Shown: one piece after another, positions 6,632-56,011 of the stretch | Layout of the letters: each line of letters begins with the position of its first letter | How positions within the stretch are numbered: position 1 is the stretch's first letter | NCBI GenBank assembly: GCA_964187785.1 | Contig: OZ076409.1 | Span: 65,040,001-65,104,000, forward strand | From: Amphiscolops sp. MND2022 | Taxonomy: Eukaryota | DNA: 64,000 bases | Direction: 5' to 3' | Notes under the pieces: generated by a model | The model's database searches: none | Seen by the model: the letters and a program-made list of their open reading frames with translations, nothing else | Told to the model about the DNA's origin: nothing | Position numbers and translations under genes: made by a program

Positions 6632-6712
6632 CATCGTGGCCGGGACCGTAAAACTATCGCTATAACCGGAATATTGTTATAAACGTAATCGTTATAAACG
6701 GAGTTGAGTGTA
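6632..6712. mobile_element. Right end of a Tc1/mariner/pogo-like MITE
   Basis: Repeated (C)GTTATAA(A)CG subterminal motifs ending ...GGAGTTGAGTG|TA. No left end found. Confidence 0.4.
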
Positions 6713-6945: not shown

Positions 6946-9900
6946 ATGTCTTATATGATACCCCATCTGCATAATGGCTGGCAAGTTGATCAAGCCATTC
7001 TAGCTGAAGAAGATCGTGTAGTTGTGATTCGATTTGGTCATGATTGGGATCCTGTGTGCATGAAAATGGACGAAACTCTTCATAAGATTGTTGAGAAGGT
7101 CAAAGTGTTTGCTTGCATTTACGTCGTTGATATTACAGAGGTCAGTTGAACTTTAGTCACCCAGAGCTAAGAAAGTGAATTTAACGTTCATATTGAATAA
7201 CCCAAAGAATACATATTATTCTTAACATAAATAACTAAAAGCTAGATGTGCAGCTTGGTAATTTTTAGGCTTCCATTCAGTTCAATGACATTTAATTTTT
7301 CTGCCGTGTAATCTTTCTTGCCTAATGATGTTTGATTTTAGCCGTCGCGTTATGAAATAAACTCGATTATTATCGCATTTTTTTTCAATCCGGTCAAAGT
7401 GATCATTCTCATGCTGAATGCCAAATGTAAAAAATTTCTTAAACAGTTCGGAAGGCCCGGTCCTCCTTTTCAAATTTTGACTAAGAGTTTTTTTCGGCGC
7501 AGTGCGAATTTTTTTCAGATCACAAAAGGGTTTTCGTTTTGGTTCTTTGATGTTTCTGAAGTTAAAAAGGCTTTGGTTTTTTTGTATTTCTGGTAATAGA
7601 AAACAAAAAAGCACTTTTAAGCCCTAATGGTCCCCCTTTAGGTTTTTCGGTACTGTGAAATTAAGAATTTATGCAAAACTGAATCTTTGACGCTTTGAAA
7701 TACTTTTGCTCTTTTTGAGCCTTGAGTGGGGCGCCGAAATATGCCGGTCTCGGCTTGTTTTCTCTAAAGGAGACGATACAGACTGCAAAACTACTACTAC
7801 ATCATTCACAATCTTCAGAGTATGACCCATTCAGGCCTCTATATGTCTAAGTGACGTTAATTGGTTCAACTCAAAGAAGGATGTTTTTTAGTATGTTGAT
7901 TTTTTAATATGTTGATGGAAAATATAGTTTCACTGATTTCTGCATCTCGTTAATGGTTGGTTACTCTTGAAAGCCTGGCTCCCTTTTCTCGGAAGCTACA
8001 TTGTTGACTCGTTCGCTTTTTTATCCAAGATTTGTGATCGCTTTCCAATTTCTCAAGTCTTCTATGGATCGTCCTCATTTGAATAGTCTAGTACTTTGAC
8101 TCTAGGCCGAAAGACGACATTCGATTCTATACACTCCTCCATAATCCGATTAATGGACATGACTAAATTGTAAATGAACTTTCAAGACATGTACGCAAGG
8201 CTGCAATTAGTTTTAGTTTAATTGAATTAGTCATTGGCCCCTGAACGTTTCAGTGAACATGCCTATATGACTCATGTCAAATTAAAGTACATCTATTCTC
8301 TTTTGGTCAGTAAGGTGTAATGAATGTCTATCATTGTATGTATGTATGTATACCTTGTACATATAAATGTATCAATGGAAACGTATCCAAATACCATTTC
8401 ACGTCATGATTATGCTCCTACTCAATTCAATTGCTATAATCTTTTTTGTTTGCCTCCAGAATGATGCTGAGTCTTTTTTCCGATCTCACTCATGCATTAA
8501 TTTGAACAGTTCTTTCGTGTTACCTGGCGCTCCAAAATGGTATTGTGCAGAAAATCTTACTCCATTCTAGCATCCAATCTTTTTTGCATTAGCCATTGGC
8601 TTGATTTTCTCCTCATTCGTCACCGGCTGATGGAACCTGGTGTGTTTTCATCAGCCCATTGAACTGCAAAATGATGTGTTGGATGCAAATTGTGGGTTAT
8701 GTTGGCACCTTTTCATTTGCACGTGCATCTTAACAGGGTTAAGCCATCATCATCAGTGTTCCGCCACTGCTGCCACTTTTATTTCCGAAGTGTGTTTATT
8801 ATTAGAAAATGATGCCTACCTCCTCCTGCACCGTTGCTACGTTCATAGCTGCAAAAGAAAGTGGAATTTTTCATCGTATCGAGAAAGCCTCTGGCTGAGT
8901 TGTATATCTATACTTGGTGCTATGTGAATTGCGCTGTTTTTGCCTGGGAAAATTAACTTTCGTATGGATGACGTAAATTTGAATTGTTCTTAAGTAATGA
9001 TATGCTAGGATGAAGTTATGTTTGCTCTTTGATTTTAGCAAAATTTTTAAATGAGACTGATATACACGCACAGGAAACGCAGTTCGGATTACGTCTCCAG
9101 TAAACTTCTTCGTAATTATTATCGAGGAAAAATTCAAAGGAAGTATTAGATATAGCAGTTTTCATTTTTTTTCAATACCTGGATTTCAACTGATTTTTTC
9201 TGAGATAATTATGCTTGGAACCATTTGAGTGGAGCAAATTTTTGCGTCTTGAAAGGCTCCACTCAAATGATTCTAGACCTATTTATCGATCAGAAAAACT
9301 TTGGTTCAAAGCCAAGAACTTTGTATTTATTTTCGTTCACCTTCAGTGCTGCTATGTCTTCGATCTCACTCATGCATTGAGCAGTTTTTGTGCTATCTGT
9401 TGCTCTAAAGTGGTATTGTGCAGACAACGTAGTCAAAAATTATGGTCCCTAAGTTGCCGTGAATGTAAAAATGTCAAATTTTGACTATTTTCAAAACAAT
9501 TTTGCTAATTTTTCAATCAGTTTCTTCGGTAGTGGCCCTAATTGGAAAATAACTGCCTTCAGAGGGGTTGATTTCTGAATTTTAATTTAAGTTTCGAGAT
9601 TTTCGTGAAACACTTGATCGAAAGTTGCAACTAAGTCATCTGTCATTTTTCTCAACTGTTCCACTCAATTCTCACAGTGTTTCATTCAAGTCGACCAGTT
9701 TTGAGAACATTTTCATGTTTTGAAAAAAGTTTCATTTTTGAGTTATTTATGTCTGATTCGCTTCACAATCGTTTTCTCTGATTTTCCACTCAAAGCCTCT
9801 TACTGGTCTACTTGGGAAGCCAATTAACTAAACATTTATTTAGGCGATTTCCTGATTGTGTTGCACTTTCGAGAATTACTTATTCGAAAGTAACAACTTC

Positions 9901-12900
9901 ATTTTCGACCCGAAATAAATACCCCAGTTGAATAAGCATTGAAATATGGTCGTTTTGTATCTTCGTATTGCAATGCGATCAAGTAAGTAAATTTGAGTAG
10001 TCGTATCTTTGAGTAATTTGAGAAACTTTGTTTATTGTTCCCCAGTGTGCCCGTAAGGTGCATTAAAAGAGATTATTTTAACAAATGAGTTTCAGGGTAA
10101 TGCGATACATGTTAAATTAGAAAATGAATTACTACCCTATTAATGTAGTCAGCTTACAACAGGTGTACAGTACGTGTACTAATAATATGCGATATGCATG
10201 TAGATCGTTTCATTGATATTTCTTTTGGGTTCATGGGTCCTAGGATAACCATAGCCTCAGAAGGAGTGTTCTAAGAGGGAACGTTTATTTAGGCCCGAAA
10301 AACTGAGGACCGATAATGAAATTTTATCTGAGGTCCGAAAAAAGCTGTCCTAGAAATTCCAACAATTTCCAACTGTCCAACAAATTCCAAAAAAATAAAC
10401 TAAACAAACAACAGAAGGCTGAATTGGCTTAAATATTAAAGCACATTTGTGTTTACCGATCAAACAAATTCATGGGGCCTCACTTTCAATACTTTCTGGC
10501 CTCAACTAACACTAGCTTTGGGCCTCGCCCTTCTAAGAAATGCATACGAGTCCCAGTGATTCGACCACCCAATAACTTTCTATGATAATTCGCTGCCTGC
10601 CTCAAAGCATTCGTATGCATAATACAAAACTGAGTGAGATTCTTGAATTATGCATTGAATTTTTTGTAAAAGTTAAAGTTATCAAATTGCTGAAATTCTT
10701 ATTGGATGGTTAAATACAAACGTTAATGTTTCAGTGTGAAACATTCATTACTTTTATCTGGATTAAGATCAGGCGTTGGGAATAAATAATTTAATAAATA
10801 ATTCACAATAAATAAAATTGAATAATTTATTTTCTCTTGACAAAAATACAAAGAATTAATTCTATCTTAACAATCATTACGTACATTGACGCTATTATGA
10901 CGTTCACGCTGGCATGGCAGTTAATCACGGCGTGTAAATTCGTGTAATCCCGTGAATTTTATTAAATCAAATTGCGCCGTGAAATATCTTGATGCAAAAA
11001 CATTGAAAAATCTACAATATCTGTAGGTTAATTCCTCCTAATTGAATTGAAGTAGTTAAAATTCTGTGTTTTTGGTGAAAAAATTGCGAAATCGTTGAAT
11101 TGAAATACTTGAAAAACCGTGTTTTTTTTTTCGTGTTTTAGTGTGAAAAATCGTGAATTTGGCGTGATTTTCGTCATCTTAGCGTGACATTTTCAGCGTT
11201 ACTTATGCGAAAAATTTCCGTGATTAGCTGCCATGCCTGCGTTCATGTATTGTAACGTTAGTTTAGGCGCCAAAACCAAATAGACGGTCAATTTTGTTCA
11301 GTGGAATGAACTACGTTTTCAATGATTACAGGAACTAAACTGAACCTGTTCATCTTGGAAGTCATGTTTTTGTCAGAAAACTCGATGTTTTGGACATTAA
11401 TTTGGTAAATTCCATTGTTGCTAATGGACCTGCTGATAATTAAATCTTGACAAAATAATTTTTGGCACTAGATATTCCAGAAAAAAGTAAGTCAATTTAT
11501 TTTTATCATTTAGAATACAAAATTATTTATTATATGATAAAAATAATATTCAAATACAATATTCCCCACCCCTGATTAAGATGCTCAAAAGGTTATCAGT
11601 TCTGAAGCCTGGCAGGTTTCACCTCAATGATGAATTTTTTGGCGAGCAGAAACGTGTCGATGTATAATTCATCTATTGAGATTACTGTTCAAGGTCAGAC
11701 TTCATCATTTGAGGGCTTAACAGAGGTTAAGCCCTCAAATGATAAAGTCTGGCCTTGAGCAGTAATCTCAATCGATGAATTATACATCGACACGTTTAGA
11801 TAAAATTATACATCGACACGAGCTTAGATCAATGCAAATATGTTTTTTTGCAATTCATGACTTTGACTTTCCGATATTGAATCTGTCAGTCAGAGTTCAG
11901 TTTTTTATTTGTCGATTATTTCGGCAAAAATTTTAATATTCCTGCTTAAGAATGTTACTGTGACCGAGCCAGTCCGACTTTTTTGTTGTAAGAATATTGT
12001 TCAATAAGTTACCGTTTGTTCTCTTAGCAATAGACGAGCTGAAATTTTTGGCAATAGACAATAGTGTGTTGACTTGAGTAATTAATGGTTCCTTGAGAGC
12101 ATTTGAAGGCCTTACTCTAGCTTTATCTTTTGCTCAGATGTGAAGAAAGTGAAACTTTTTTACTTGAGTTTTTGCAAAAATCAGTAGATGAGATATTCAA
12201 AAATCCATCTAAAATTTGAAGGTTTACGTCTACTAACTTTTTCCTAATTGTAGAAGTGATATACTTTTTGATTTTTTGAAAAATTTTGCAATTGTAGGAA
12301 TATAATTGCGACTCGATCTTTATGGAGTGCCCCATAGTGCTATTATGTACCATGGGTCAATCTGAATACGACCCTAGCATTTAGTCACAAACTCTTCCTG
12401 TTAGAAAATTGATCTAGCAAGACACGTTATTAGATTGATTCCCTGCGGTATTTTGTTTAATTTTGAAGCAACACTATTTTCTACTTGTACCATGGTAATT
12501 GATACCAAAGGAACTAGGTTACACCCCTTCAATGCTGTGAGACCTACCATCTACTTAAGTCTCAAGGCCGCCGGCTGGTTTTTGCATGTTGACTGTAGTG
12601 TTCTTTTTTAAGCCTTAAGGCATTTTTGGTGCATTTTTAATCCTTTTTTCCTCGAGAAACCGTTTTTGGATCTCCAGTTACCTCATCTTTTCTTTTAGGT
12701 TCCTGACTTCAACAAAATGTACGAGCTCTATGATCCATGCACTGTCATGTTCTTCTACAGAAACAAACACATAATGATTGACTTGGGAACGGGTAACAAC
12801 AACAAAATAAACTGGGCCATTGAGAACAAGCAAGAATTCATCGACATCATAGAAACTGTGTACAGAGGTGCGCGCAAAGGCCGCGGTCTTGTCATATCCC

Positions 12901-12932
12901 CCAAAGATTATTCTACCAAGTACCGATACTGA
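6946..12932 (+). CDS. TXNL4A: Thioredoxin-like protein 4A (Dim1, U5 snRNP 15 kDa); exons 6946-7140 and 12699-12932; 142 aa
   Basis: MSYMIPHLHNGWQVDQAILAEEDRVVVIRFGHDWDPVC...VDITE | VPDFNKMYELYDPCTVMFFYRNKHIMIDLGTGNNNKINW...SPKDYSTKYRY. GT-AG phase-0 intron 7141-12698. Confidence 0.97.
10770..11574. mobile_element. hAT-like MITE in the TXNL4A intron
   Basis: TIRs CAGGCGTTGGGAATA / TATTCCCCACCCCTG. Perfect 8-bp TSD ATTAAGAT (10762-10769, 11575-11582). Confidence 0.85.
10909..11239. mobile_element. hAT-like MITE nested in the previous element
   Basis: 22-bp TIRs CTGGCATGGCAGTTAATCACGG / CCGTGATTAGCTGCCATGCCTG. 8-bp TSD CGTTCACG / CGTTCATG. Confidence 0.85.
11650..11797. repeat. Near-perfect 148-bp palindrome (72-bp arms, AGAG loop)
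   Basis: AAACGTGTCGATGTATAATTCATC...GAGGGCTTAAC-AGAG-GTTAAGCCCTC...GATGAATTATACATCGACACGTTT, with few mismatches. Confidence 0.92.
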
Positions 12933-13520
12933 CAGCATCACATATGTCTCTACAACATTTTCTACCCTTTTTCCTGTTACGATGGGCCTACGTGTTTTAC
13001 GGGTCCAAGGTTCTTCAGTCACCATCTGACCAATTTAGATGCATGGTCTGTAAAATTGCGACAAGAAAGTGGCTCCTCCTATTTTTATGGAAATGTTCAT
13101 TTATCTAAGAGCATAGACCGACTCGACCTGATATTTCTTTGCCCAGGGCTCTTTTGAAAGCAAATGTTCGGAAGATTCATTGAAGTGGACTAAAGTGTTA
13201 TTCAATAATCTTTTTAGTAAAGGTTATGTAGATCCGTCCCACCGGATAGGATAATTCTCTTGATAATGTTTAGTTTTAATTGAAGTTTTTCTCAACATAC
13301 TGTTATAATTTTGTGATATTGTTTAGTCCAAATTAAGTTAATCGCTTAGAGCTTTGAGTTACAAAGCTTTTAGTCCAAGATCTCGATGCTCAGCTCAGTA
13401 GGTCTGAATTTTTAAAATTAGGTTCAATTTTGTTAAAATCCAAATGTTTTGAAAAACGTCAGAAGTTGAGTAGAGTGGGGATCTTGATCGAATGAATGTT
13501 TGCTTTTCAGATTTTAGTGT

Positions 13521-16500
13521 ATGATGTCTCAACCGTGTCTGGACCTGCGTCAAGACGTGAGTGTGGCCATTGACCTGCTGCATAAACTGAAGAGAAACAA
13601 CGAGATCAGTGGTCAAAAAGCCGATGCCCTCATCTCAGTTCTAGAGAGTCCCTTTTTCAACGCAGTCCGCGAAGTGTACGAACATGTGTACCAGACTGTA
13701 GATATCCAGGGAAACGAAGAGGTTAGTTAGTTAGTGCTAAAATTGTGCCCCTATTGCGTTTCTTATTGAATCATTTCATAAGAGTATATTGCATGCTGCG
13801 CATATACAAGTATTCAACTCTGGTTAGATTTGATTGGTTACGTTGACAACGGGAACAGAAGGCGGGGAGGGTGTTGTAACAAAGAAGGCCTAGTCATACC
13901 GCCAGTGCTGTAACAACAGGATACCGGTGGGCTTAAACCAGTCTACTAGAAAGTGAAATCAGTCAAAGCTGTTTTTTTAGTCGGCGCTTTTCTTTAGAAA
14001 AGAGTCGACTATAGTCATGGCTTTTCGTCAGTGTTTTTTAAGAACACCTGAACTGACCAAAATAGTTCTACCAAAAGTTCTACAAAATTTTCAGAAGACT
14101 CCAAAATGTACCTGTTGGCCCAAGGAACAACCAAAAAGGTTTCCCGCGCAACATACAATACCGGACGAGACCAAAGGGTCCATTTTTTCGGCACTGTGCG
14201 ACTTTTTTCCCCACGAAAGGCCCCCTTCAATTTTTTGGAGTTTTGCAACAGAATGGATGTTGAAAAATCCCAAAGGGTCCTCCCTTTCAGTTTTTTTCGG
14301 CATTGTGAGACTTTTCAAAAAAAATTTTCATAAAAGTAGTCCCAATTCACCAATACTTGGAAATTTTGAAGTCCTTTTGCTATTTTTGAGCCTTGGATAT
14401 GGCGCCGACTTGGGCCGTTCCCGGCTTGTTAATGGAAGCAGTTGAGTTTCTAAATTCCACATCTTTTGCTACCGAGCTCTCAGAAGTTTAATGTGTATTT
14501 TGCTGTTAAGTACAATTCAGTATCAACCAGTATCTTGAATTCGTTTCATTAACAAGACTTAAAGTCATAAGAATTTGCATCATTTTCAAATGGTTTTGAG
14601 TGCTGTGACATGTCCTCGATCAACAATACTTACATGTACGACTGGTAACATGGTCGGATTTGAGAAAAAAATCGGAATTCAATAAAAAATCTTTTCATGC
14701 TGCTGGTACTGGCGCTACTTACACACTGAAGTTTGTTGACCGCCATTCCGTAAAAAAATTAAATGAAAAAGTACTGAAAATTTATAGTCGCTTGAAATGT
14801 CTCGGAAAGTAAACATCCGAAATTTCTTTGCGAAGAGCTTGGTAGAATCTTCTAAATTGAAACAGTAGAGTTACATGTACCTTTATTATTTATGCAAAGC
14901 TTTTGTGCTACTTCAGCTGTTGGCTAGTTTTCATTACCGTATTGATGTCGTCACGTTTGACCTTTAATGCTTTTCATTTTCCCTTCCTGGTGACAGACAG
15001 GTCCGGTTCAGTAATGGTCAAGCGTCGTTCTCATCTATTCATTTTCCATGTTCTCGTAGACAGTGGGTATCGGATCAGATTCAATTACCATTCCATTAGT
15101 TGCACTGTCATGGAAATTGATATATGATGCTGCTTGTATGTAAATTACACAAGTATTATTTTCGCCTCAATCAATAAAAACATTCAATATTTGTGCTACG
15201 GTTCGTGAGATATGCTTGGCTCCAGGATTTCAGGCATAGTCACAGTGGGGGTTTTGTCGGAGTGATGCTTGGAATAGAACTTGAAACAACAGGTATTTTT
15301 AAAGTTGTTTTAAACAGTTTAACATGATATGTTTTTCTAAACCCCAATAGTCATAAATGTTTGAAACAAACTTAATTTCTCCCCATCTTTGATTTATGTT
15401 AAAGAACGGAAACATAAGGTTAACCGTGGGACCTTCCGTTGAACTAAATTCATTCGTACACCGTCTGAATAATAATGCTTCTTTGTTCCAAAAAATGTTG
15501 AGTGTTGCAAAACTTTTTTGTATTGAAAAAGCCAACTATTTGCGTGGCTGTTTTCAGGTAAGAGCCAACGCAACGGCAAAAGCGACAGTGGCCGCATTTG
15601 CTGCTAGCGAGGGCCATGCTCACCCCAGAGTAGTGCAACTGCCGGTCACTGACGAGGGATTCGGATTCAACATCATGGGAGGCAAGGAGCAGAACTCACC
15701 CATCTACATCAGCAGGATCATTCCCAATGGCATCGCGGCCAGGTACGGGGGGCTGCGGCGGGGAGACCAACTGCTCAGTGTGAATGGGGTGTCTGTCGAA
15801 GGAGAGAGTCACACTGCCGCCGTACAATTGTTGAAAGATGCTACAGGTTTGTCGGTTGTTAAATTATTATGCCTCTTCCTATCTAATGCATACGAGGGGA
15901 GGAAAATTTTGTAATTTCACAAAATAAGCACTATCCCGCAACAACAATCAAAAAGGTCAAAAAATGGTTTCGTAGCGTGTATTTATGAAGAATGGTGCAT
16001 TCATTCTCAATACGGGAGGTTTGACTCTTTGGGATTACCGTTAATAAGTCGGGAGATATCGTGGTATTTTATTGGTCTTCTATGGAAGCTAGGGAAACGC
16101 TTCTGTTGACCAAAACTGAACGAGTTTTCACTAATTGATCGTTCGCTGAGGGCTTCATTGGCATTCAAATGTGAATCCAAAAACTCATTTCCGCTTCCTA
16201 CAAAGCTTTTAGTTCACGATTTGTTTAGATGCTTTCTTTCTGAATTATCGTCTCGAAAATCAAAAACGAACTTCACGTCTGTAACTACACGATGCTCCGC
16301 ACAAAAAAACTATTAAACTCGCACAAAAAACTATTACGCTAAGTCACAACTCTTAATCTATTACAAAAGCGGATGGATGTGCATCCTACTTTGATTTGGA
16401 TCCAATTTTCCGATCAGAGAAAAAATACGTGATATTTGTTTCCTTCGGAAGTCCACCAGCGTTAAGGAAAACATGGCGTCTTCTGGTATCGCTACTGTGT

Positions 16501-17392
16501 ACTACCTCAATTTTTAGGAACCATTCAAGTTTATTTTGAAATCAATGACCCCGTAACTTTTTTGAATGACCTCATTAATCAAGAAGAGTGGTATGAATCC
16601 GAAATCATGGTGGAAAGAGCGCCAAAGCCATATCCCAGCTCTAAAGTTGGATTGAATGTCTTGGGCATTCTTCCATCGCTGAGTAGCATCGCTAACCTCT
16701 AGGAGTATTATCGCGAATACGTATCACGAGCTTTTTGAAAACTTCGTTTTGAGCAATGAAGATTTGGTACGTTTTGTTTTTGGAATGGCAGAATGAATCC
16801 CAGAACTGAAGTTTCCTATCTCTTTTGAATTGTTTAAATTCTGTTACCTGTCTTCCTTTGTTGCAATTTACCCAAAAATTCATTTTCCGCCCCTGATGTG
16901 TTGTTGCTGAACTAATTACTAAGTTTGTTTTTTTTTCACAAAGTTCTGAAAATGAATGTTTTTGGGAAATCTGTTTGCAATTGGAATGTTTACTTCCGGA
17001 AGTTTTCTATGAATTGATTTTATCCCGAAAACTTATGTGTGGAATAGATAAACTTCTTTAAATTAGTCAGCCAATTTTTTCAACAGGTCCCCGTGATTTT
17101 TCAAATTTCACACACAGCCGTTTATCCTTCGATGTTTTGGCCTTGATTGAACTTTTTGAATTGTTTGAATAATTGAAGCGCAATAGTGTATGAAGATGAA
17201 GTGCCTGTATTATTGCGCTGTGTTGTTGCAGGTGTTGTGAAACTTATCGTTCGGTACACGCCTAAAGTGTTGGAAGATATGGAAGCCAAGTTCGAGCGCC
17301 AGAGACACAGATCAACGCAGCAGACTCTTCAGTACCAGCAACAACAACGCACCTTAGATAGGAATTCCATGCCTCGCAACAAAGGACACTGA
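13521..17392 (+). CDS. LIN7: Protein lin-7 homolog (L27 + PDZ); exons 13521-13721, 15558-15846, 17232-17392; about 216 aa
   Basis: L27 domain [14 protein letters not shown]...[71 protein letters not shown]...[34 protein letters not shown] introns with consistent phases. Confidence 0.96.
13972..14430 (+). mobile_element. Non-autonomous Helentron/DINE-1-like element (complete copy, LIN7 intron 1)
   Basis: 5' T-run + AGTCGGCGC sub-TIR with adjacent partial inverted repeat. 3' GGCGCCGACT sub-TIR + GCCG-TTCC-CGGC hairpin + TTGTT. No TSD seen. Confidence 0.7.
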
Positions 17393-18707: not shown

Positions 18708-21700
18708 ATGGGTGACTCATCAGAGACAACGGGTGTCACAGGAGGTCCCACGGAGAACCACCATCCACCAGGCACAGTGTCACATAAACAATTTTCAAAC
18801 ACTTTTCGACAAATTAGGAGGCTGGGAGTACGAGGATTCGCATCCCGCGCTCGGCCAAATTTTTAATGCTTACAAATGTTTAAAAGGAGACCAAAGGATC
18901 ACCACATTGGAGTTTTTTGGTACTTAGCGACTTTTTTGAGAAAATTTTGGTCCAATTTTTGAGTAATCCTGAGATCTAACGTGTACCCAAATGTGTCAGA
19001 GGGCCCGCTTTTGAATTTTTAACTTGGATAAAAAACTTAATGATATGACAGGGTACCCCCTTGGATTTTTTGGCTCGCTGCAATTTTTTCAAAATGTTTT
19101 TCATTTCACTAGGGTGTCTTTCGGTTTTCAAAAAGTTTTCGGTTAGAATGTGTTTTCCTCGCCCAAAAGGTCTTTAATTTGCGTTTGTCGACATTGTGAC
19201 TTGAATTCATTTTTATTTGTTGTAAGTTGGGGAAAAGTTTTTTTAACCTGAAAGGTTCCTCTTTTGACTTTTTTCGGCATTGTAAGACTTAATAGAATTG
19301 TTTACCACCAATTAGTTTCACCAGTGCCGTAATTCGCATTCAACCAGTATCTTTTCAAATCGAACTATAATACCGTTTCTGATGTAACGCGTATAACGAT
19401 GAAAATACTCTATATCCGAATTATTAACGTTATTCTTACCGGATCGAAGACATGGGAAGTACGTTTTTCTAATTGCCATTTCGGAACTAGTTTTCATTTT
19501 CGTAGACTTTTTAGTTCAAAGTTTCCCGATACCTTTTTTGTCAAACAATCGAGGCTGGAAGGTGTCCGATCGTTTCTAAACGCGTATTAACAGAATATAC
19601 GCAAAATATTGCAGAGTAACTGCGCCTCTTGAGGTTTAGAATGGTGAATCGTTTAGCTGATGCATTTAGCGCACTATAAAGTCCCTATACTAGTGTTTTG
19701 TCTTGACACAATTGATTTTTAGTCCGAGTTTTTGAAGAAAATGCACGACTCTTACAGTGACAAGTTTTTTTTCTTCAGTTCAACGCGATCGGTCCACTTT
19801 TTCCAACATCATCAACTTGAACTACGGACGTCCAAAACATCTTCCAAACGCCAGAACCTCGTCCAAAACAAAAACATCGACGTCCAGAACCTCGAAAACA
19901 GGATTCCCTTTGGTGTTTTCCACTCGGATTTTTTTCGGCACTGTGCGACTTTTTTTGAATTTTTTTTGGATTCCACCAAAGGGTCTCCCCTTCGTTTGTT
20001 TCGATATTTTGCAACACAAATGGATGTCAAAAATCCCAAAGAGTCCCCCTTTCACATTTTTCGGCACTGTGGCACTTCAAAAATCTCATTAAAAAAATTG
20101 TTCGGAAAACATACTGAGGATCCCCTCTTTGGCGTTCTTCACTCGGATTTTTTTCGGCTCTGTGCGACTTTTTTTGAAATTTTTTGGATTGCACCAAAGG
20201 TTCTATCTTCCTTTGTTTCGATATTTCGCAACACCAGGAATGTCAAAAAATCCCAAAGGGTCCCCCTTTTACATTTTTTGGCACTGTGACACTGTTCAAA
20301 AAACTTTAAATTTTTTCCGGAAATTTTTCAAAATCTCCCAAGGGTCCCCTCCAATTTTTGCAAACCAACTGGAGTTTCACAAAGCCCAAAGCCCCCCCCC
20401 CTTTTTACAATTTTGAGCCTTAGATATAGCGCCGCCTTTGGCCGTTCCCGGCTTGTTACATATTAAGCTGTCCGGCTCACTTAGACTTCTTTTCAAAAAT
20501 CCAATAATTTCGTGCAGACCGACAAACTAATTGAGTCCTTTGACCCTTTCATTATTTTCTTAGCGCACAACATTTTTGAAATATGGAAATACGGGTGTTT
20601 CTCGCAGAGTAGTTGTTGGTTGGTTTGATTAAATGGGTCAATGGTAATATACAGCAACATGAAGTTATTTAATTTTGGTGACACTGGGCAGGCACTTCGA
20701 TCCCGACGCCTTCAGTGGCATCTAACAGTCACCAGCAAAGCAACGACTCCAACCACAGTGCAGCTAACACAGCCGCCGCTGCCACAGCTGACCCGGACCA
20801 AGAGGCTGCCCAGGAGCTAGAGTCTGAACTGTCCAAACTCAAGGTAATCCTCGCCATCTCACCTTATATAACACCTATATAGCTTCATAGCTCAACCAAT
20901 CTGTGGATTGAAATACTCAAACCAAACTTGGATTGTTATCAAACTAGTTTGGCTGACATTTTCTGAATAGACGATCGAGTCTCGATACGAGTTTTACCCA
21001 AATGTAAAAAGTTGCACAAAACACCGGAGTATTCATCTGTGCAAATTTCTGCAAATTGTGACACCGAAAAAATTCAAGTGACAGAAGCAAAGCTATTTTA
21101 GGGGCTGAGCTATGGAAATGATCTTCTATTCAGAGCTAACGTTTTTAGGAAAGTACAACTGTGCAGTAATTAGTGGAATCGGTTACTTGCTAATTTTCGA
21201 AACCTTTTCGATAAAGGTACACTCTGGGAAATGTTGAACAATGGGTTTATATTGGACTTCACTAAATGCTAGTAAGATTATAACATCGCTTTCACATACC
21301 ATTATTTTTATCAACAATGACAATTTTCAGTGAACAATAGCACGTTTGTATGAAATCTCTATGTTTTTCTTGAACCTTTACTCTTGAAGCCTATCTTTAC
21401 TATTTTCGTTGAAATTTCTGGGTAATTGCCAAATTTTCAAAAATTTCACTCATAAAATAGGTGTCTCTTTGGTCTCTTTATCACGCGTAATAAATTACTT
21501 TGCCCATTTTAAAACTATTTTTAGTCGGCTATTTTTTTAAGAACAGAGCCGACAATAGTCATGGCTTTTCGTCAGTTTTTTTCGATGAACATGAACTGTC
21601 CAAAATAGTTCTACCGGAAGTTCTTCAATTTTGACAATGTCCCTTTTGGCAATCTACATACTACATTTGACTGTAAAAAGTGCTACGGAGTCCCCTTCGA

Positions 21701-24700
21701 CAATAACACAACCCATACCGAATTTAACGCAAACCGGATATAACGAATACCGGAAATAACGTTTCTTGGAGGCTTTTTCAATGATGAGGTCAAAGCAGTA
21801 AGTTTTTGTATGGGTACATGAATGAAGGGCAGCACTAGTTTTCGTTTCAAAAGATTTTATAATTGATATTTTGGTGTTGAAATCTAGAATGCGAAATGAG
21901 ATGTAAAATTGGTGATTGGTTTCAGGACAAATTACAGAGTGAAAGAGAAGCAGTAGGAGACAAGACGCTGAACGACACAGCTTCGACCCTAGAAAACCTC
22001 ACTCGAATCAGACTGAAGCGTTAGTTTCCATTTTGTTACTTTAATCTGAGTTCCAACAAGAAATCAATGGTATAGGATGCAATATCCTGAAGTTTGATTC
22101 ATCAAAACTTGAACAGAAACAATTGATTTCGATTAGAAACAGTTGTATACTGCTATTTTCTTGAAAAATAAAATCGGTATTGCGAACTTGTTTGCATTAT
22201 CATTTCCATCTTTTCCAGATATTTCAGATATTTTTGCACGAAAAGGTCAGATCCTGGATTATTTTACCGTGTTATTACTTACACTTGCGATAAGCAAGTG
22301 TTATGGGAAAGTGCGGGTGCTTTTTTTCCGGGCGACAACTCTCTCGTTTCAGCCCGCAAGTCGCATAGTTCAGGCAAGTATTCCGGAGCAGATGGTTCTC
22401 ACTTTTTTTGGCACTATGAGACCCCCCTTTTCGGCTTTGTGAGATTTTTCGAAAATTTATTAATGTTCCCGAAGAGTCCTCCCTTCATTTTTTTGATATT
22501 TTGCAACAGAACGAATGTTAAAAAATTCCGAAGGGTCCCCTTCATTTTTTTTGAAAATTTGCAACAGAATGGATGTTAAAAAATCTCAAAGGCCCTTCTT
22601 ACAGTTTTTGGCATTGTGAGATTTTTCAAAAGGAATATTTTTCGTTTTGAAATTAGGTTTTCTCAGGCCCAGCACGCTATATCCGATTTTTGATTTATTT
22701 TGAAGAACGGTGTTTTTTCTATGCGACTTTTAAACTTTGTTTTCATCGAAGTCCCTCCTCAATTTTTACCAGATACGAAACGTTTTGCGAGCGTTAAGGA
22801 CTCCTCAAGGTTTTCGGCACTATGCGACTTACCGGAGACCATCAAAAATTTTAGAAACATTTTTTCCTCAATTTTCTTTTTTAAAAGGTTTTCCGTTTAG
22901 AGAGATGAGTTTTTTGCTGTTTTCAGTTGGGGAAGAATGGTTTTCGAGACTCATGCATATCCCTTCGGGTATTTTTTTGCGCTGTAAATTGATGAAATTT
23001 TAATATCCTTTTACCTTTGGTTCTCCGTATGATATTGCTTATTTGGTTTTCTTCAAAAGTTCGCAAGTGTTTGCGGAGCACGGCTTCGCCTCTGTGTAAT
23101 AAAAAGTGAGAACAACTGAGCCCAAAAGTTTTGTTCCTACATAGGTACCAATGATTCATCTTTGTTATGAGTATAAGTCCCCATATTGGCCTTTGTTGTT
23201 CCGATTTTTCGTTGAATAACACATTAAAGCCCCATTTTGTACATAGTAAATCGGAATAGCTGGCTATTGTTTCAGCGAGACGTACGTTAAATGGTCACGC
23301 AGCGGCCATCTACACAGTGTCGTGGCGACCTGAGTCGTGTGAGCTAGTGAGTGGGTCTCAGGATGGGAAGTTGTTGATCTGGGACACTCACACCAACAAC
23401 AAGATCAACATCATCACCCTCAAGTGTCCCTGGGTCATGAGCAGTGGCTTCGCGCCCTCGGGCAGTCTGGTGGCCAGTGGGGGTCACGACAACGCAGTCT
23501 CTGTCTACTCTCTCAAGGCAGAAGCCTGTCCTGAGAAGCCCATCCAGCAGCTCACAGACCATAACGGTAGGCATACATTCATACAACTGACCAGTTTCTG
23601 ACCAGCGCTAGCTCATTATAATCAAGCGATTGTGATCATTGATTATCATCAAGCTATCATCAAAATTGATTGAAAGTATTTTAGTAACAAGCTGGGAACG
23701 GCATAAGTCGGAGCCATATCTAAGGCTCAAAAATAGCAAAAGAACATGAAAGTCAAAAAAACCCAAAGTATCAAACTCACAAAAAGAGTATCAAACTCAT
23801 GAAAAACCCAAATGACCGAACTGGCGCGCTAAAATGGGGGACCCTTTCGCATTTTTTAACATCCATTGTTGCAAAACATCAAAAAATTGAAGGGGGCATC
23901 CTTTGGTGAAGGAAAAATTTCCAAAAAGTCTCACAATGCCAAAAAAACTGAAAGGGGGGACCCTTTAGTTAAAAGTTGAATTTTCTTGAACATTATTATA
24001 CAATCATAGTATTGATAGTATTTTAACGTTTAGATATGAAAATGTTCAAGAAGGACAAAAAATAAGCCTAATCAGCTCTTCAAGTTTCCGCCCTTAAGTA
24101 CAGGACCAAGATAGGCAAGTTTATCGCTTTCGTTAATTGTGTTCCGATGAACATTTGAACGCGTCTTCCTATTGGAAAAAATACGATACGATATCCCTAC
24201 TTTCAGTTATATACAACCGTGTTAGGTTCTTCAGATATGATGTAATTTGATGATGCGTCATTTCTTCGACACCAGCCGGCATCAAATCCATTTCAATTAA
24301 CCAATTATAGCCTTTGATTAATGCATTTTCCACCGATTTATATTTAGTTCTTGTTCGGTTCATAGATACTGGTAGAAAACCTTTTTTAAATTCAATTTGG
24401 GATCATATAATTTTGTAGAACTTTGAAGAACTATTTTGATCAGTTCGTGTGGATTGAAAAAAAGTCACTATAATAGTCGCGGTTCACTTCATGGAGCACC
24501 GACTAAAAATAGATTAAAATCAGCAGAACTTGGCCACTTTTGACGTGGCTTAGTTAATTTTTTTCTGCTGTTCGTTCTGAGCACTGAACAATCGTAATCC
24601 GTCTCATCGCTTGAGGCTTGGTTTATTTGAAGACTAAACACTAATTCAGAATTGAAACCCGAAAGCTTGTTTTCTGATCCAAATTTTGAATTTATCATTG

Positions 24701-27700
24701 AAATTATTCAATTTTCTGCATCCTTATTTTTAATCAATTTAGTTTTGGCTATAGTAATTTTAATCGGATATTTTTAGTCGGTGCTTTTCTAGGGAAAAGT
24801 GCCCGACTCTTACAGTGGCTAGTTTTTTTTTCGTCAGACCACAGACCTCATCGCGTATGTACCACTTTTTACAGACTTCACTCCCGCTCACATGTACTCG
24901 TCAGTACTCGGTTTACGGTGAACCCAGCGGTCACGGGTTCGAGTCCTTGCTTTAGCCAGAAACTTTTTCGAGCAATTTTTTTCGGCACTGTGCGACTTTC
25001 AATTTTTTTTGGCACTGTGCGACTTTTTTTCGAAATTTTTTTTGTCGCCAAAGGGCCCCCTTCAAGTTTTTTGATATTTTGCAGCAAACTGAAGTTTCAA
25101 AAAGCCCAAAAGGTCCCCCTTTCTAGTTTTTTGGCACTATGAGACTGTTTCAAAAATCTCATTTTTCGTTTTTCTTCGAAAATTTTTATATTTTTTAAAT
25201 GTCTCCAAAGGGTCCCCCCTCAACTTTTTTGATATTTTGCAACAAACTGGATTTTCAAAAAGTCGAAAGGGTCCCCCCTTTAACAAATTTTTAAAAAATT
25301 GCGCTTTTTTGAGCCTTAGATATAGCGCCGACTTTAGACGTTCCCGTCTTATCAAATTCAAAGCCAACCCTCGCTTTGATATCGTTTTGAATTTTATGAT
25401 GCAACATATCCTATGATGTGGGGCAGAGGTGTGACAGCGAGAGCGATGGCGGTAGCGTTGACGACAATTCAGCATTAATTAGCGATAGCGATAGTTAGCG
25501 ACGAATTAGGGCGTTAGCGAAGATTTTCATTCGCTAAACAGAATGCAATGCCGTTAAGGTAAGAACGATTGAAAATATGATACTGCTGAAAAATATTCAG
25601 TGTGGCCGGCAATATGCAGAACCCAAGGCGAACTAGATTTTAAAACTCCGAAATTTAAATGAATATCTTGAAAATCAGTTTTTTAATTAGCGATTAGCGA
25701 ACCCATTTTGTTGTAGCGATAGCGATGAAATCAAGCCATTAGCGATGTTAGCGATTAGCGATAAAAATGGTTAGCGATCACACTTCTGATGTGGGGGTCC
25801 TATTCTACTGGAGTTCATTGGGGTAATAGGCAGGGGAGGTTGGCATATTTTTCAAGAGGCTGTTTTTGGTTTATGACTTCTGTGAAATGGTGTTGGCAGT
25901 AGCAGTACCAAAACAGCCCGCATTGATTGAAAACACCATGAAATAGAACTGAAATCCATTTTGACACAATCGAAGTCCTCTGAAACATTTAAAGCATAGA
26001 TTACCGCATTCAGCCGATTTGAAAAACGCACGAATTTCTCGATAAATATTTCCTTACTTTTAAGTTCTTTCTCAGTTATAACCTTTCTAGTATCTTAAAA
26101 GTAACAATGATCTTCGTTCTTTAATCAAAACATTGCTATTCTTCTCCAGTCAACTAGGAAAAGTTATAACATGGTGAAGTGGTTAGAGTATACGGCCTGA
26201 ACTGGGGCGGTATCAGGTTCGAATCTCAACTCACTATTGTTGGGCGTTTTGCAACTCCTTCATCTCTAGCTTAGTCGTATGGTCATGACAAAACGTAACG
26301 CAGTCGGCGGAGTTCAAGCAGACCATTTCTTGACCATTTGTCTGCATACAATAGGGTACCAAAAAGCTACATATACTTGATTCCAAATCTCAAATCGCCA
26401 TAGTATTTTCATAATCAGAAGATACAAAAGTGATAGCAGCAAAACCTCCTCAAATTTCAATCAGAATTACATTTTGAACTCACACAAAAGTTAGCAAGAA
26501 AGCTCCAGATCAATTTCTCACTTTAAAATTTAACAGTTTTTCTGAAAACGCCCTCCTTAGGAATTCACAGCGCAAAAATACAATTTTTTGGCTGTTCATT
26601 TTTTAGGAAATCATTTTCAGAATAATTGTTCTAATGAAAGTCAAAGAACTGTGTCAAGGCGGCAAAAATGATTGAAGGTAGTTTTTCTTTTGAACAGTAG
26701 TTTCTTGGAGATTGCTTAATAAAGTTCAAAAAGCTCCAAAATTCCTCGAAATACAATGTGATAGAACTTTTTTTCGATTTCAAAACAAATATTACTTTTG
26801 TAATTCTGATCAAACACCTAATGACTCCTGTTAGAGACTTTTGTGCAAATGAATATATTAAAAGTTATTGCGCTCTGAAAATTTTTCGTTAGCCAAATCG
26901 ACTGTCTAGCTTTTCGGTACCCTAGTGTATATGATGGTGAATTCCCAAATAACATTAGAGCAAATAACATAAAAACCATTAGTTTCAAATAACATAAAAA
27001 TGAAATGAGTTTCACTAAACATTAAAATAAAATGGTTTACGAGAAAGTTTTAGTGGTCAAAAGATTGACTGAAAACTGTGAAAATTACAGATAAAATTTT
27101 GAGTTCGATTGTTTAACCGGGTATTCGGTTTTATTTTTGTTATTTGAAACTATTTTTGTTTTTGTTATTTGCTCTTATGTTATTTGGTACGTAATCGCAT
27201 ATGATACCATAGCTTGCTATGGGAAGGTAGTATTCGAAAGGGCGCCGACTTAGAAAAGCAGAATTGCTTGTTCGGCGTTCACCCCGCGGTAATAGAGAAA
27301 TTATTAACTTTATTTCTTCCAAGTAAACTGCGCTGCTATAGCGAAGTGCACCAATTGTGTCGGTATCTGTATTATAGCACGTCAGTTAAGAACAACAAGA
27401 CTACTACCATCTTTATTCGACCTCTTAGTTCTTCCTCAAACGGTGTTAGTCTTGGATTGACTCAATTTTTGCTGAAATTGAATGATATTTATGGTGAAGT
27501 GACCATTGGAAAACAATATAGTTGTGTTTATTCAGTTCAGTACGCAGCATACAAGTCAATCTGATTTTATAATTGTGTAGTACGGTTGTGGTGCGCTTTA
27601 AAAATGCCCATCTATAAATATAGTGTATGGTTTAATCAGAAAAGTGAATCTTGCGTAACGAATCACGGCAATTTTGTAAAATTGAAACATGTTTGACTTC

Positions 27701-30700
27701 TAGGGTGAGGTTTCCCTTGGTCTGATTTTACGACCCACGATAATGTAATATTGTGTCTTAGACGACAACTTTTAGAAGCATATTCAAAGTGTAAGTCTCG
27801 TTATGTATCAAAGGTGCAATTTTTGTTCAAACGTTCCCAGGCAATCAGGGAAAAGCGTTGAATTGTAGCTGCTACAAGTTTTTAATTTCATGTCAAGAAT
27901 TCGGTTGCCTTTTAATGTTGTTTGATGTTTACCATTGAGTAATCAAAATTCAATTTGTTACGACGAAGCTGTTTTGTTTGCTTTCAACTGCTGACCGCTA
28001 ATGTATTTATTAATGGTCGGTCAAATGGTCGGTCCTGATTTTTTTCATGCATCCACTGATGACGTTGAGAGCCGGGGGTAGTTTCCATTAATCTTTATAC
28101 TTTTATCAAGAATTTAGAACCAAGTATCAGCATAATTAATTTCTTCTTAATTAAATTCTTAATTTCAATAAGAACACTTCCTGTTCAGCTGGAACGCTGA
28201 AACCCTCTACGCATCAAGTTTTTTTTGAAATGCAAGGGCTTCAGTTTCTCTGTCATCTTTTGGTATGGAAACGTAAGGACTATAAATTCGGAATCTTTGT
28301 TGGAAAATGATAAAAAGTCATCATTAGCAATGTAGAAAATCATCAAAAAATAAAAGATCATCCAACAAAAAGTTCCAATTTAGTTCCAAAACATCTTATT
28401 GGTCACTTAGATTTGAGTTGTGTTGAGAAACAAGGATCAAAACACCTCACTTCAAAATGGAATTAGTTGCAAGATCATAAATTTGAAACAGCGGCGCTTC
28501 CTCGTCAGAATCATTGGACAAAGATATCATGTACTTTTTAGTCGGCGCTTTATGAAGTGAAACGCGACTATAATAGTGACTTTTTTCAATCCACACGAAC
28601 TGACCAAAATAGTTCTACAAAGTTCTACGAAATTTTAAGGTGTCAAATGGAACCATTTGGTCCAAGGAACTGAACTAAAAGATTTTTCCTTTTTAGTCGG
28701 CGCCTTTTCCCTTAAGGAAAAAAGCCCGAATATTACAGTGGGTAGTTTTTAGTCGGCGTCTTTTCCCTTAAGGAAAAAAGCCCGACTATTACAGTGGGTA
28801 GTTTCTTTAGTCGGCGCTTTTCTAGGGAAAAGTGCCCGACACTTACAGTGGCTAGTTTTTTTTCGTCAGACTACAATCTCACTCTGATTGGACCACTTTT
28901 CTTACAATCGAAACTACTAAAACTACTACCATAAGGCCAAGTCCGGTCAGCGGAAATTAGTGCAAAAATCCCCCTTTCATTTTTTACTATTTTAACGTAA
29001 CCTACAAAACCGGACGAGACTAAAGGTCCCCCCTTTCGATTTTTTTTCGGCATTGTGCGACTTTTTTTCGAAAATTTTTTAATGTCTCAAAAGAGTCCCC
29101 CTTTCGAGTTTTTTGATATTTTGCAACAAAAATATATGTTAATAAAGCCCAAAGGGTCCCCTCTTTTACATTTTTCGGCGCTATGCGACATTTTCTGAAA
29201 GAAAAAAATTCAAAAATTTCAAGTTTTTTTCAAAAAAAGTCTTTTGCGCTTTTTGAGCCTTAGATATAGCGCCGACTTTAGACGTTCCCGTCTTGTTTTC
29301 TTTTTCAGCTGACAATCTCACTCTGAATGGTCCACTTTTCTTACAATCTTACAATTTCTCAATTTCTTACAATTGTTAGCTTACGAAGTAGTATTTTCAT
29401 ATCATTTAAGAAACTCAACGGGACCAAAGAGTATTTTCGGCTCTGTGAGAGTTTTTTTGAAAATTTTTTCACCGAAGGGTCCCACCTTCAATTTTTTGAT
29501 ATTTTTGGACAGAATGGATTTTGAAAAATCCCAAATGGTCCCCCCTTTCAGTTTTTTTCGGCATTGTGAGACTTTTCGGAAAAAAAATCCATAAAAGGGT
29601 CCCCAATTCACCAATACTTTGACATTCCGAAGTCCTTTTGGTATTTTTGAACTTTAGATATGGCGCCGACTTGGGCCGATCCCGGCTTGTTTTTCTTTTT
29701 CAGCTGACACTCTGAATGGTCACACTTTTTACAATTTTCATGATTCATGAATTTTAGCAAGCAAATTTATAAATAATTGCACAAAAGTTTACAACGATTT
29801 TTTACATCTAAGAAATTTAACGGGACCAAAGGGTACTCCCTTACAGTATTTTCGGCTCCGTGAGACTTTTTTCGAAAATTTTCAAATGTGACCGAAGGAT
29901 CCCCTTTTTGATGTTTTTTGTAACCATAAGCCACTTTTTGTGTCCAAAGGGTCCCCTTTCGGGTTTTTCGGCACTGTCGAGACGTCAACATGGATTCTAG
30001 TTCGGATATAACGTTTCAGAGTTCGGATGTAACGTTTTCAATGTTCGCATGTAACGTTTTGAAAGTTCAGATGTGACGTTTTCCAAAGTTCGGATATAAC
30101 GTTTTCAAAGTTCGGATATAACTTTTTTCATTTCTCGTATAATATCAATTTTTTGCCCCAAAAAAACGTTATATCCAAAATGTCACATAATTTGCTTCCA
30201 AAGTAATGCTTAGGGTTTCAGTACTATAAGACTTTTGGATTTTCGAGCCTTAGATATGGCGCCGACTTGGGCCGATCCCGGCTTGTTTAGCTTAACATAC
30301 AGTACCGGGCGAGACTAAAGGGTCCGCTTTCAGTTTTTTTGGCATTGTTAGACTTTCGAAAAATTTTTAGTGTCTCCAAAGGGTCCCCCTTTAGTTTTTT
30401 GATATTTTGCAACAGACTGCATGTTGGAAAATCCAAAAGGGTCCCCCCAGCGCGCCAGTTCGGTCCAACGTTTAGGTTTTTTGGGTACTGTAGAAGAGAA
30501 TACTTGACACTTTGAAGTCCTTGTGTTATTTTTAGTCGTCGCTTTTCTAGAGAAAAGAGTCGACTAAGTCATGGCTTTCCGTCAGTTTTTTTTCGGTAGA
30601 CCTGAACTGCTCAAAATAGTTCTACCAAAAGTTCTTCAATTTTGGAAATGTCCCTATTGGCAATCTACATACTACCTTTGGACAATAAAGGAGTCCCCTT

Positions 30701-33032
30701 CGACAATAACATCGCCCATCCCCTTTGGATTTTTTTGGGAAACCGGATATAACGTTTCTTGGCGAATTTTTCAATGATACAAAAGCCCCCCCCCTTGTGA
30801 GTTTTAAGATATTTAGAGTTTATACGAAATCATTTGAAGCCAAAGGGTCCCTCCTTTCGATTTTCTTCGGTATTGTGAGACGTTATTCTTAACTTAACCG
30901 AACATTTGTTTTATTAATACTTTGTTTAAGCCTTTTTTGGCTCTGTGCCTTTTTTTCCGAAACTTTCATTTGGTCAAAGGGTCCCTCCGGCTTGCATAGC
31001 TGATTTCGGCTTGAGAAAAGGTAATTGTTCGAGCTGAAAGTTCCTTTTTTGGCACTCTGATACTTTTCTGAAAAAAATCAATTTTTTTTCGAAAAATGGA
31101 TTTTTTGTTTCCAGTTAGGAAAAATGTGGTTTCCGAGTTAAGTGGTCCGGAATATAAAATGAAAAAATCATGAATTTTGGAGAAACTTTGTGTATGTGAA
31201 TATTTTTGACTCCGTAGTGCCGAATTTTTATTTTCTGCTGTGATTAAGTATCTATTAAATGTTCCACTGGTTGAAGGCATTTTGTTTTAGGCTTTGTTTC
31301 TTCCATTCACTTCATTGACGACCAGCAATTGATCTGTAGCTCAGGAGACAACTCGTCTGCTCTGTGGAATTGTGAGGACAACGTCAAATTAACATCTTAT
31401 GAAGGTACGTCTCCTCCGCATTCATCTCAGAAACACTGTTGACTATGTCATCGTCATTAATGTCTGCGTTGGCAACTCAACTCGAGTGTGCTTCATTATG
31501 GAATTGGAAAATTCAAAAGACACTTGCTGTAAGGACGTGCTAAGCAAATCACGCTGAGTGCAGAACTTCTGATAGTGACGTTTCAGGAGTGATTTTTGAG
31601 GAGTTTCATTTATCACTCATTCATTTGGTATTCTAAAACTCAAGTTTCAATCAAACTGCCTGATTTCACATCAGGAAGTAATATTATGCATTGTAAATAT
31701 TCAACTCTAATAGAAAATGTCAACAAAAATTGCTGAAACTTTCAGTGTTTTGAGTGATGTTCACTGCATTCTTTAAAAAAATAGTTGCAAGAAGTCTTTT
31801 TGATAATGAAAGATAGGATTTTTGATATTTATTTGTAAGTTTCTGCGCAGTCCAAAATTCTGATCACCATAAGCCTCTCTAAAAACGTTCGTTTTCTTTT
31901 TTTGCTTGGGTTGAAGTATTTTTTGCTTAACCAGAAGTTCGTATTTCACAGAGAACTATGCTTAAAGAGACCTAAAAAGATGAAAATCCAAATTTCTCTG
32001 AATTTTTGAAAACTACATTTATCGGAACCAATAACATTTGAGAACTTGTCATATGAACAGAATGTTTTCCGGAAAATCCTTGGGCTACAAAAATAATAGC
32101 TGGTATAATTTCTCTATGCTGGCTTGAGTGTGAATAGTGGTTTGTTGATTCAGGTCACACGGCTGAAGTGATGGGAGTGGCTGCGTCGAGTGACAACACC
32201 ATCTTCGTCAGTGGCTCCTGTGACAGGACGGCCAAACTGTGGGATGTGCGCGAGAAAAGTGCCAGACAGACGTTCACTGGACACGAGCTGGACATCAACT
32301 CCATCTGCATGTTCCCCTCTGACCGCGCTTTCGTCACCGGCTCCGACGACAACTCCTGCAGACTATTTGACATCCGCTCAGACCAGGCATGTCATCACAT
32401 TGATATCTTCCAAAAATATTTTTTGAAAAAACTGTGGGTTTCATATAAGCTGAGCGTTTTGGTTCTTTCTGCGTGAAGGGAAAGTTAACAGTGCGTCTTG
32501 GATGCTTCATGCAATGAGTTATATAGCCAATTTTGGTTATTGAATTTCTATGAAACTCATTATTTTTGACCGTTTATAATTGGATTCTAACCACTTCGGG
32601 TTCAGACAGGTAACTTTAAAAAGAATAGCTTGAAATTGAGGCTTCTTTTTTTAAAGAAAACCGTTTCAGTTGTCAGTAAAATTTTGAAGGTTGTTTTATA
32701 TCGTAGAAATAAAATCATGACATTTTTTGAACTGGCGACCCAGAACTTTGGTAAAGATAATTGTTGACGTGCCTGTCATGCGTTACCAGTCGGTGGCTTC
32801 GTACACTCAGCTGAATCTCAACTTCGGAATCTCCTCCGTGTGCTTCTCGAAGAGCGGGAGACTTCTCTTCGTTGCATGTGACTTTGATGTCCTCATCTGG
32901 GACACGCTGAAGAGTCTGAAAGTGGGCATCCTGTCTGGCCACGAAGCCAGGGTCTCCTGTCTGGGCGTGAACAGCGAAGGCACCGCCGTTTGTTCAGGCT
33001 CTTGGGACGCCAAGCTCAAGGTGTGGAACTGA
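18708..33032 (+). CDS. GNB: Divergent heterotrimeric G-protein beta subunit (WD40); exons 18708-18771 (tentative), 20692-20843, 21926-22019, 23276-23566, 31291-31404, 32154-32386, 32790-33032; about 396 aa
   Basis: Coiled coil [126 protein letters not shown]. Exons total 1191 nt in one frame. Introns 1 and 6 are GC-AG. Paralogue (GNB1-4 versus GNB5) unresolved. Confidence 0.92.
19716..20457 (+). mobile_element. Helentron/DINE-1-like copy inside predicted G-beta intron 1
   Basis: TTTTTAGTCCG start, family internal modules, end GCGCCGCCTTTGGCCGTTCCCGGCTTGTT. Confidence 0.65.
23686..24509 (-). mobile_element. Helentron/DINE-1-like copy, interrupted by unrelated sequence at about 23970-24390
   Basis: Reverse-complement termini AACAAGCTGGGAACGGCATAAGTCGG and GCACCGACTAAAAA. 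Confidence 0.6.
24771..25350 (+). mobile_element. Helentron/DINE-1-like copy with tRNA-like module
   Basis: Family termini. Internal GGGTTCGAGTCCTTGCTTTAGCCA. Nearly identical to 63364-63971. Confidence 0.7.
25424..25788. mobile_element. hAT-like MITE with (T)TAGCGA subterminal repeats
   Basis: TIRs CAGAGGTGTGA / TCACACTTCTG. Perfect 8-bp TSD ATGTGGGG (25416-25423, 25789-25796). Confidence 0.85.
26168..26236 (+). repeat. Degenerate tRNA-derived sequence (SINE head or tRNA pseudogene)
   Basis: A-box-like TGGTGAAGTGG and B-box GGTTCGAATCT at tRNA spacing. No intact cloverleaf. Confidence 0.45.
28535..30530 (+). mobile_element. Four-level nested stack of Helentron/DINE-1-like elements in G-beta intron 4
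   Basis: 5' termini at 28535, 28690, 28746 and 28806. 3' termini at about 29297, 29691 and 30287. Outer bodies resume after each 3' end. Confidence 0.72.
30000..30125 (+). repeat. Minisatellite, about 21-23 bp (GTTCGGATATAACGTTTTCAAA) x about 6
   Basis: Directly visible tandem units inside a Helentron-like copy. Confidence 0.85.
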
Positions 33033-55574: not shown

Positions 55575-56011
55575 CAGAGGTGTAAAAATTTATATTGTAT
55601 TGCAATATGTTGCAATTAAATACAAATAATATATTTATTTAGTTGGAGCAAAAATACAATATATTTATTGAAAGAAGGCAAATATTGTTATAGCTCTGCA
55701 ATTTATTGCGCAAAAAAATTATTGCAAAATAGAAATAAAATTCCATTTAGTATGCATTTTAAACGGACTAGAAGTGAAAGACTATCAAGGGAGAAATTCA
55801 CTAAGCTGTTCGCTAATTTCGAGAGTGTAGTCTTTCTTTATACAAATAAACAACATTGGGTTGTTTGCCTTGTGAATGAATGTTTCTCTGCCCAATGTTT
55901 TTCTAAAATTTTGCAGGACATTAAATACCATATATTTATTGCTGAAATTGAATCAAACAATATAATATTTTTTTTGAAAAATACATTTAAATACAATATT
56001 TCACACCCCTG
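55575..56011. mobile_element. hAT-like MITE
   Basis: TIRs CAGAGGTGTAAAAAT / ATTTCACACCCCTG. Perfect 8-bp TSD CTTACATT (55567-55574, 56012-56019). Confidence 0.85.

Follow-up and report, generated by a model that had tools for sequence, protein, structure and literature searches.

A GC-AG intron of an acoel G-beta paralog as a probable decayed hAT-type transposon

The last intron (intron 6) of a G-beta paralog gene in the acoel Amphiscolops sp. MND2022 is, judging from sequence comparisons, probably a decayed non-autonomous hAT-type DNA transposon of ~390 bp that was inserted in a coding exon and is now spliced as a GC-AG intron. The window analysed here is a stretch of 64,000 nucleotides (contig OZ076409.1 of assembly GCA_964187785.1, positions 65,040,001 to 65,104,000 of the forward strand), and its positions are used throughout unless another locus is named. 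The gene and the parts of it surrounding the intron are as follows:

18708..33032, + strand: whole G-beta paralog gene, seven coding exons and six introns, open frame, 396 aa
18708-18771, 20692-20843, 21926-22019, 23276-23566, 31291-31404, 32154-32386 and 32790-33032, + strand: coding exons
32154..32386, + strand: exon 6 of the G-beta paralog, from protein comparison
32387..32789, + strand: intron 6, GC-AG, phase 0, 403 nt, after a conserved D-Q, single copy in the genome
32790..33032, + strand: exon 7, the last coding exon, stop codon included

Protein similarity marks the gene as a divergent G-beta paralog that is specific to acoels and carries an N-terminal extension. Among named proteins, the nearest to it are the G-beta-like ones of the acoels Symsagittifera roscoffensis and Convolutriloba, both of which also have a paralog with the N-terminal extension. 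It shares only a minority of the intron positions found in the two GNB1-like paralogs from the same genome. The predicted splicing of its introns is based on protein P0051, which comes from a 1,797-bp, transcript-like contig, is continuous over all six junctions and is identical to the reconstructed protein in 382 of the 399 aligned columns (~96%). The intron 6 junction is also spanned, at the protein level only, by P0003, a 164-aa gene call with a non-homologous start on a 339-kb contig.

Introns 1 and 6 of the gene are of the GC-AG type, and for both of them the protein comparison gave GC as the sole junction solution, while the remaining four introns are GT-AG. The preliminary description of this DNA had placed the donor of intron 6 at CAG|GC (32386/32387) and the end of the acceptor at 32789; these coordinates and the length of 403 nt are correct. 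The use of a GT donor instead, which had been named as a refutation, is not supported, as the comparisons with P0051 and P0002 allow no in-frame GT solution next to the GC donor and AG acceptor. The acceptor is poor: it scores 0.5 bits with a matrix built from the kinase introns of this genome, for which the median is 9.6 and the 5th percentile 3.1, and the pyrimidine tract reported as missing is indeed absent from the last 14 nt (32776..32789). GC donors combined with poor acceptors can be real in this genome, which calls for caution on the part of annotators.

Almost the whole intron lies between two inverted repeats, and only the final 14 of its 403 nt fall outside the span from one terminal inverted repeat (TIR) to the other:

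32384..32397, + strand: left TIR, whose first three bases are the exon Gln codon and whose bases 4-5 are the GC donor
32762..32775, - strand: right TIR, 12/14, holding TTGAC on the + strand
32776..32789, + strand: 14-nt tail, likely a decayed 8-bp target duplication plus the original host CAG, which serves as acceptor

The inverted match of 12/14 between the two repeats was reproduced, and it is beyond chance. When the intron interior was shuffled 2000 times, 7 trials reached 12/14 or better, and the best inverted match did not exceed 10/14 in the gene's four GT-AG introns or in 15 introns of four paralogs (a comparison with one doubtful junction dropped and one unresolved). Matches of this quality are therefore rare in both shuffled and GT-AG introns, in line with what had been proposed. 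However, a strong GC donor of the ordinary kind would read much like CAG|GCATG, so that the left end adds no independent evidence, and it is the right end that carries the weight of the argument against chance. The family end word described below matches at 10/11 near the intron 6 acceptor, whereas none of 191 other introns exceeds 9/11. When the left end was paired with 191 foreign right ends, one scored equally, in another register. With 3000 control pairs of mismatched ends taken from real introns, p = 0.0017 was obtained for the joint score of the TIR and the target site duplication (TSD). As the preliminary description had also noted, no clean TSD survives, the agreement at the TIR boundaries being 1/8; we read this as decay of the duplication. 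The last five bases of the tail are identical to the exon end.

Both ends of intron 6 match a transposon family with CAGGCATG termini and 8-bp TSDs, at 12/13 positions for the left end and 11/13 for the other. Against a library of 55 TSD-flanked elements, intron 6 was tied first among 205 junctions, a rank affected by the enrichment of the library for the CAGGCATG family through targeted searches. Four distinct CAGGCATG elements of 445-940 bp with an exact 8-bp duplication were present among 30 loci. The 11-mer end word occurs 407 times in the genome compared with 136 for a control, but part of this excess is not derived from TIRs, because 55 of the 58 matches to an extended end pattern share one longer word and the 5 of those examined lie inside an unrelated repeat. 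One other candidate from the extended pattern, L306, was rejected as a sibling of intron 6; at 250-285 it has an acceptor-like run, five bases and CAG|GCATGT, without an evident right repeat, which would be compatible with a GC-donor micro-exon.

The hAT label given to the family is based on the 8-bp TSDs and the YAG termini. The genome is rich in hAT dimerisation domains (2215 candidates, of which 150 were scored). YAG-ended elements with exact 8-bp TSDs hold 8 of the 20 hAT-transposase loci examined out of the 150 listed. Among these 20 loci, one hAT-transposase element ends in TAGACATG, the nearest to CAGGCATG, and none is an autonomous element with the exact CAGGCATG end. Within the window, YAG-ended elements with exact 8-bp TSDs lie at 10770-11574, 25424-25788 (in intron 4) and 55575-56011. 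The first of them contains a MITE:

10909..11239, no strand assigned: 331-bp MITE, TIR 20/22, TSD 7/8, of a different subfamily within the same terminus class, enclosed by an 805-bp element

This MITE had been reported to share the terminus of intron 6, which holds for its right end, CAGGCATG, and fails for its left end, which starts with CTGGCATG, that is, with CTGG and not CAGG; its interior has no similarity to that of the intron. A genome search for sibling copies with the whole 403-bp intron matched only the intron itself, and its interior was not similar to any of 15 candidate elements (z <=1.8). Right ends of CAGGCATG type with a nearby CAG gave 68 matches, and in the 30 examined the other 29 loci were not introns. 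No sequence-similar introns were found in unrelated genes, only the end type being common to the kinase loci L280 and L183 described below. Intron 6 likely behaves as an old hAT MITE, and it agrees with the family in part.

A metagenome scan gave 34 loci, among them one genomic orthologue, L212, taken from its similarity to be that of a related acoel. In this compact gene, four GT-AG introns, 58-77 nt in length, occupy the positions they have in the G-beta paralog and the sequence is continuous at both GC-AG sites, and for this reason introns 1 and 6 look gained. Moreover, the two GNB1-like paralogs of the same genome are continuous over the intron 6 position, so an ancestral position across animal G-beta genes, named beforehand as a refutation, was not supported. 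The empty site codes for Asp-Gln-Ala. The other apparent gain is considerably longer:

18772..20691, + strand: intron 1, GC-AG, absent in L212

The element within it (18775-20686) has a perfect 9-bp inverted repeat of the CAGTG type, and an 8-bp duplication (6/8) flanks the element and supplies both splice sites. The gene would thus have gained two introns whose sites are empty in the orthologue, and the earlier proposal of two transposon-born introns formed by two geometries, with the donor supplied by the TSD in one and by the TIR in the other, holds up in both parts.

For intron 6, a hAT-type MITE would have inserted between the Asp and Gln codons, just upstream of CAG. The CAG at the end of the element would have remained exonic and replaced the Gln codon, creating an AG|GC donor, while the host CAG, displaced to a position downstream of the right end and of the 8-bp duplication, would have become the acceptor, with the protein length unchanged. 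The right TIR may provide the branch point as well, through TTGAC with its A at 32767, 22 nt upstream of the intron end; this reading is weak because a branch-point-like word stands at a comparable place in 46 of 192 introns. The 8-bp duplicate, which would include a competing AG, would then have decayed along with the interior of the element. The model predicts a tail of 11 nt and the tail of intron 6 has 14 nt. Other YAG-ended families likely acted alike elsewhere, the GC or GT donor coming from the TIR, from the duplication or from one base of each. A geometry like that of intron 1 (a 6/8 repeat over the junctions, with the duplication giving CAG|GC) was also considered for intron 6 and rejected, as it leaves no inverted ends.

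The element could instead begin at the GC itself, with 8-bp inverted ends and an 8-bp duplication ending in CAG that gives the acceptor. Such an arrangement, the classic one, which also makes the element the source of the donor, requires no length change and would account for a 7/8 inverted match ending exactly 8 nt before the acceptor and for a 5/8 direct repeat in which the five exon-side bases are identical. We consider it unlikely, as this inverted match is shorter than that of 12/14, the 14-bp right repeat is left unexplained, and in the DNA examined GCATG is absent from the tallied termini of TSD-flanked elements whereas CAGGC is present. Quite improbable, too, is a gain by break repair or tandem duplication at an existing CAR|GC site with an inverted match by chance. 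The empty site encodes Gln-Ala, hence AG|GC could predate the intron, which is single-copy, and the one equal score among the 191 foreign right ends leaves some room for coincidence; the family end word beside the acceptor, better than in any of the 191 other introns, speaks against it, as does the clearly TIR- and TSD-bounded structure of the other gained intron of the gene.

Two further explanations assume that an intron was already present. MITEs are common in the introns of this genome, and one may have inserted at the 5' end of a pre-existing, lineage-specific intron, taking over its donor, which would agree with a 14-nt tail that does not fit the expected duplication. However, almost all of the older intron must then have vanished, since only 14 nt without a pyrimidine tract lie outside the element, and L212 has no intron at the site; we regard this course of events as very unlikely. 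An ancestral intron lost in the relatives examined is hardly credible: although the DNA of only one relative, with a compact gene, was compared directly, the loss would have to strike precisely the two TIR-bounded introns and spare the other four, and the position is also missing from the two GNB1-like paralogs. The insertion of a hAT-type element into the exon is the explanation retained here.

To see whether the locus reflects a wider process, kinase introns were located with a profile made from 27 kinase domain stretches of the same genome, applied to junctions in 120 ten-kilobase regions. The resulting figures are indicative, as the cuts were chosen after seeing the data, the junctions are profile-based and kinases may not represent the genome. 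Among 197 resolved junctions, 171 scored at least 15 (162 GT and 9 GC), and 7 of these 171 introns (4 GT, 3 GC) were TIR-bounded at p<0.01, compared with 1.7 expected (binomial p = 0.002). A cut at score 19 left 157 junctions, 6 of them GC (3.8%). In this set, TIR-bounded introns made up 2/6 of the GC and 3/151 of the GT introns at p<0.01 (Fisher 0.012), and 3/6 and 5/151, respectively, at p<0.025 (Fisher 0.0016); the other half of the six confident GC introns has no TIR. Excluded from the strict count as unreliable were L187, L192, L290 and four low-score GC calls, and L289, a GT intron with a strong TIR, fell below the score cut and was not counted. On the - strand of L192, at ~4306-4930, a CAGGGATG-type inverted pair stands at a kinase junction that has no good GT or GC solution, and a GG donor is possible. 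Acceptor scores are low in all seven TIR-bounded introns of the strict set (-2.1 to 4.8 bits, compared with the median of 9.6), which may be taken as an independent sign of recent origin.

Three of the GC-AG kinase introns illustrate how the donor could arise. The layout with CAG|GC and a TIR starting three bases inside the exon recurs in L280 (+ strand, 568-2404; p 0.002) and in the MAP2K7-like L183 (- strand, 4409-4783; p 0.017), the latter without a GT option against P0057. A third geometry is seen in L166 (+ strand, 5173-6719), presumably a DYRK-like kinase by its motif, where one host G and the first C of the element form the donor and the first 14 bases of the intron are the end of a TSD-flanked MITE in L043. 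GT-AG introns with inverted ends of the TAAGG or CAGGG type were found in L162, L267 (two introns), L269 and L289, two of them with 6/8 duplications. Elements starting with CAG or TAG may therefore be able either to swap their terminal codon for the host CAG or to complete a donor with one base.

An enrichment of TIRs in GC-AG over GT-AG introns, proposed at the outset as a check, was found in the kinase sample, with many TIR-bounded introns still being GT. The broader claim of a hAT-driven gain of GC-AG introns is borne out as regards hAT-type gain but not as regards GC alone: there is a GC bias, and 4 of the 7 best kinase cases are GT. This suggests hAT-type intron gain with a GC bias, acting more widely in the genome. 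Whether the acoel lineage has undergone a long-running intron gain driven by many hAT families, with a few percent of the introns and about half of the GC-AG ones being old scars of it, is a question on which we see an even balance.

Intron 6 can be compared with several known systems. Maize Ds, a non-autonomous hAT element, is said to have been found by Giroux et al. in 1994 to act as a new intron removed by splicing; that case reportedly concerned a recent mutant allele in a plant, whereas intron 6 is fixed and decayed and lies in an animal gene.

Introners carrying a donor and co-opting an acceptor have been described (PMC9860276, Chrysochromulina, Fig. 2C; PMC11282704). In the part of PMC9860276 that treats Chrysochromulina, introners likewise insert in exons, bring a gc or gt donor, use a host AG as the acceptor and leave the protein unchanged. 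However, their acceptor lies within the target duplication, while in intron 6 the acceptor is probably a host CAG immediately past the duplication, and the CAG of the TIR stays in the exon; moreover, they form a family of near-identical introns, whereas copies of the intron 6 type are old and single-copy. Supplementary file 8 of PMC12130899 lists hAT-class introner families in Styela clava (fam1), Panicum virgatum (fam14), Trifolium repens (fam4, gc 6/7) and Salvia splendens (fam1). As listed there, these also have sources with hAT-type TIRs, some with 8-bp TSDs and some with mostly GC donors, and one is an animal case. Unlike intron 6, they were found via the similarity of recent introns, and the Styela, Panicum and Trifolium families are listed as co-opting both splice sites; compared with the families of that survey (PMC12130899), several families appear to act in the acoel and their interiors are diverged. 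The review PMC11282704 mentions GC-AG introner introns in Polarella and Symbiodinium and MITE-derived introns in Fritillaria borealis, which, according to its account, are similarly transposon-born, with non-GT donors, TIRs and TSDs. In these three, however, non-GT introns are described as common or predominant, with the suggestion of an altered or relaxed spliceosome (PMC11282704), while ~96% of the sampled acoel introns are GT-AG.

Introners, including hAT ones, are therefore known, and the acoel case was not found in print. Five acoel or xenacoelomorph names are absent from supplementary files 1-12 of PMC12130899, the species list included, and no published paper on an acoel introner or acoel intron gain was found by title or abstract. 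Nor was the swap of a TIR codon found described in the openly accessible literature covered.

The gain of spliceosomal introns in animals is poorly documented. A survey of 8,716 genomes found >98% of its introner-bearing species among aquatic, unicellular or fungal organisms and validated few animal cases (PMC12130899). If the acoel lineage has indeed undergone such a long-running gain by many hAT families, screens for introners based on similarity would miss these introns because only the ends survive, and this genome would be among the very few animal genomes that allow each intron birth to be dated individually by comparison with relatives. The locus also offers a simple rule for predicting whether a given transposon end will yield a GC or a GT donor, and a search that does without intron families is suggested, combining ends that match the genome's own TIR library with a weak acceptor. 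A direct test is possible in acoels, for which several genomes exist.

Apart from the G-beta paralog and the elements described above, the window contains long reverse transcriptase-like reading frames on the - strand (58324-61960), which by their motifs presumably belong to an LTR retrotransposon. Two further genes, at 6949-12932 and 13518-17392, presumably resemble DIM1/TXNL4A and LIN-7, respectively, based on motifs.
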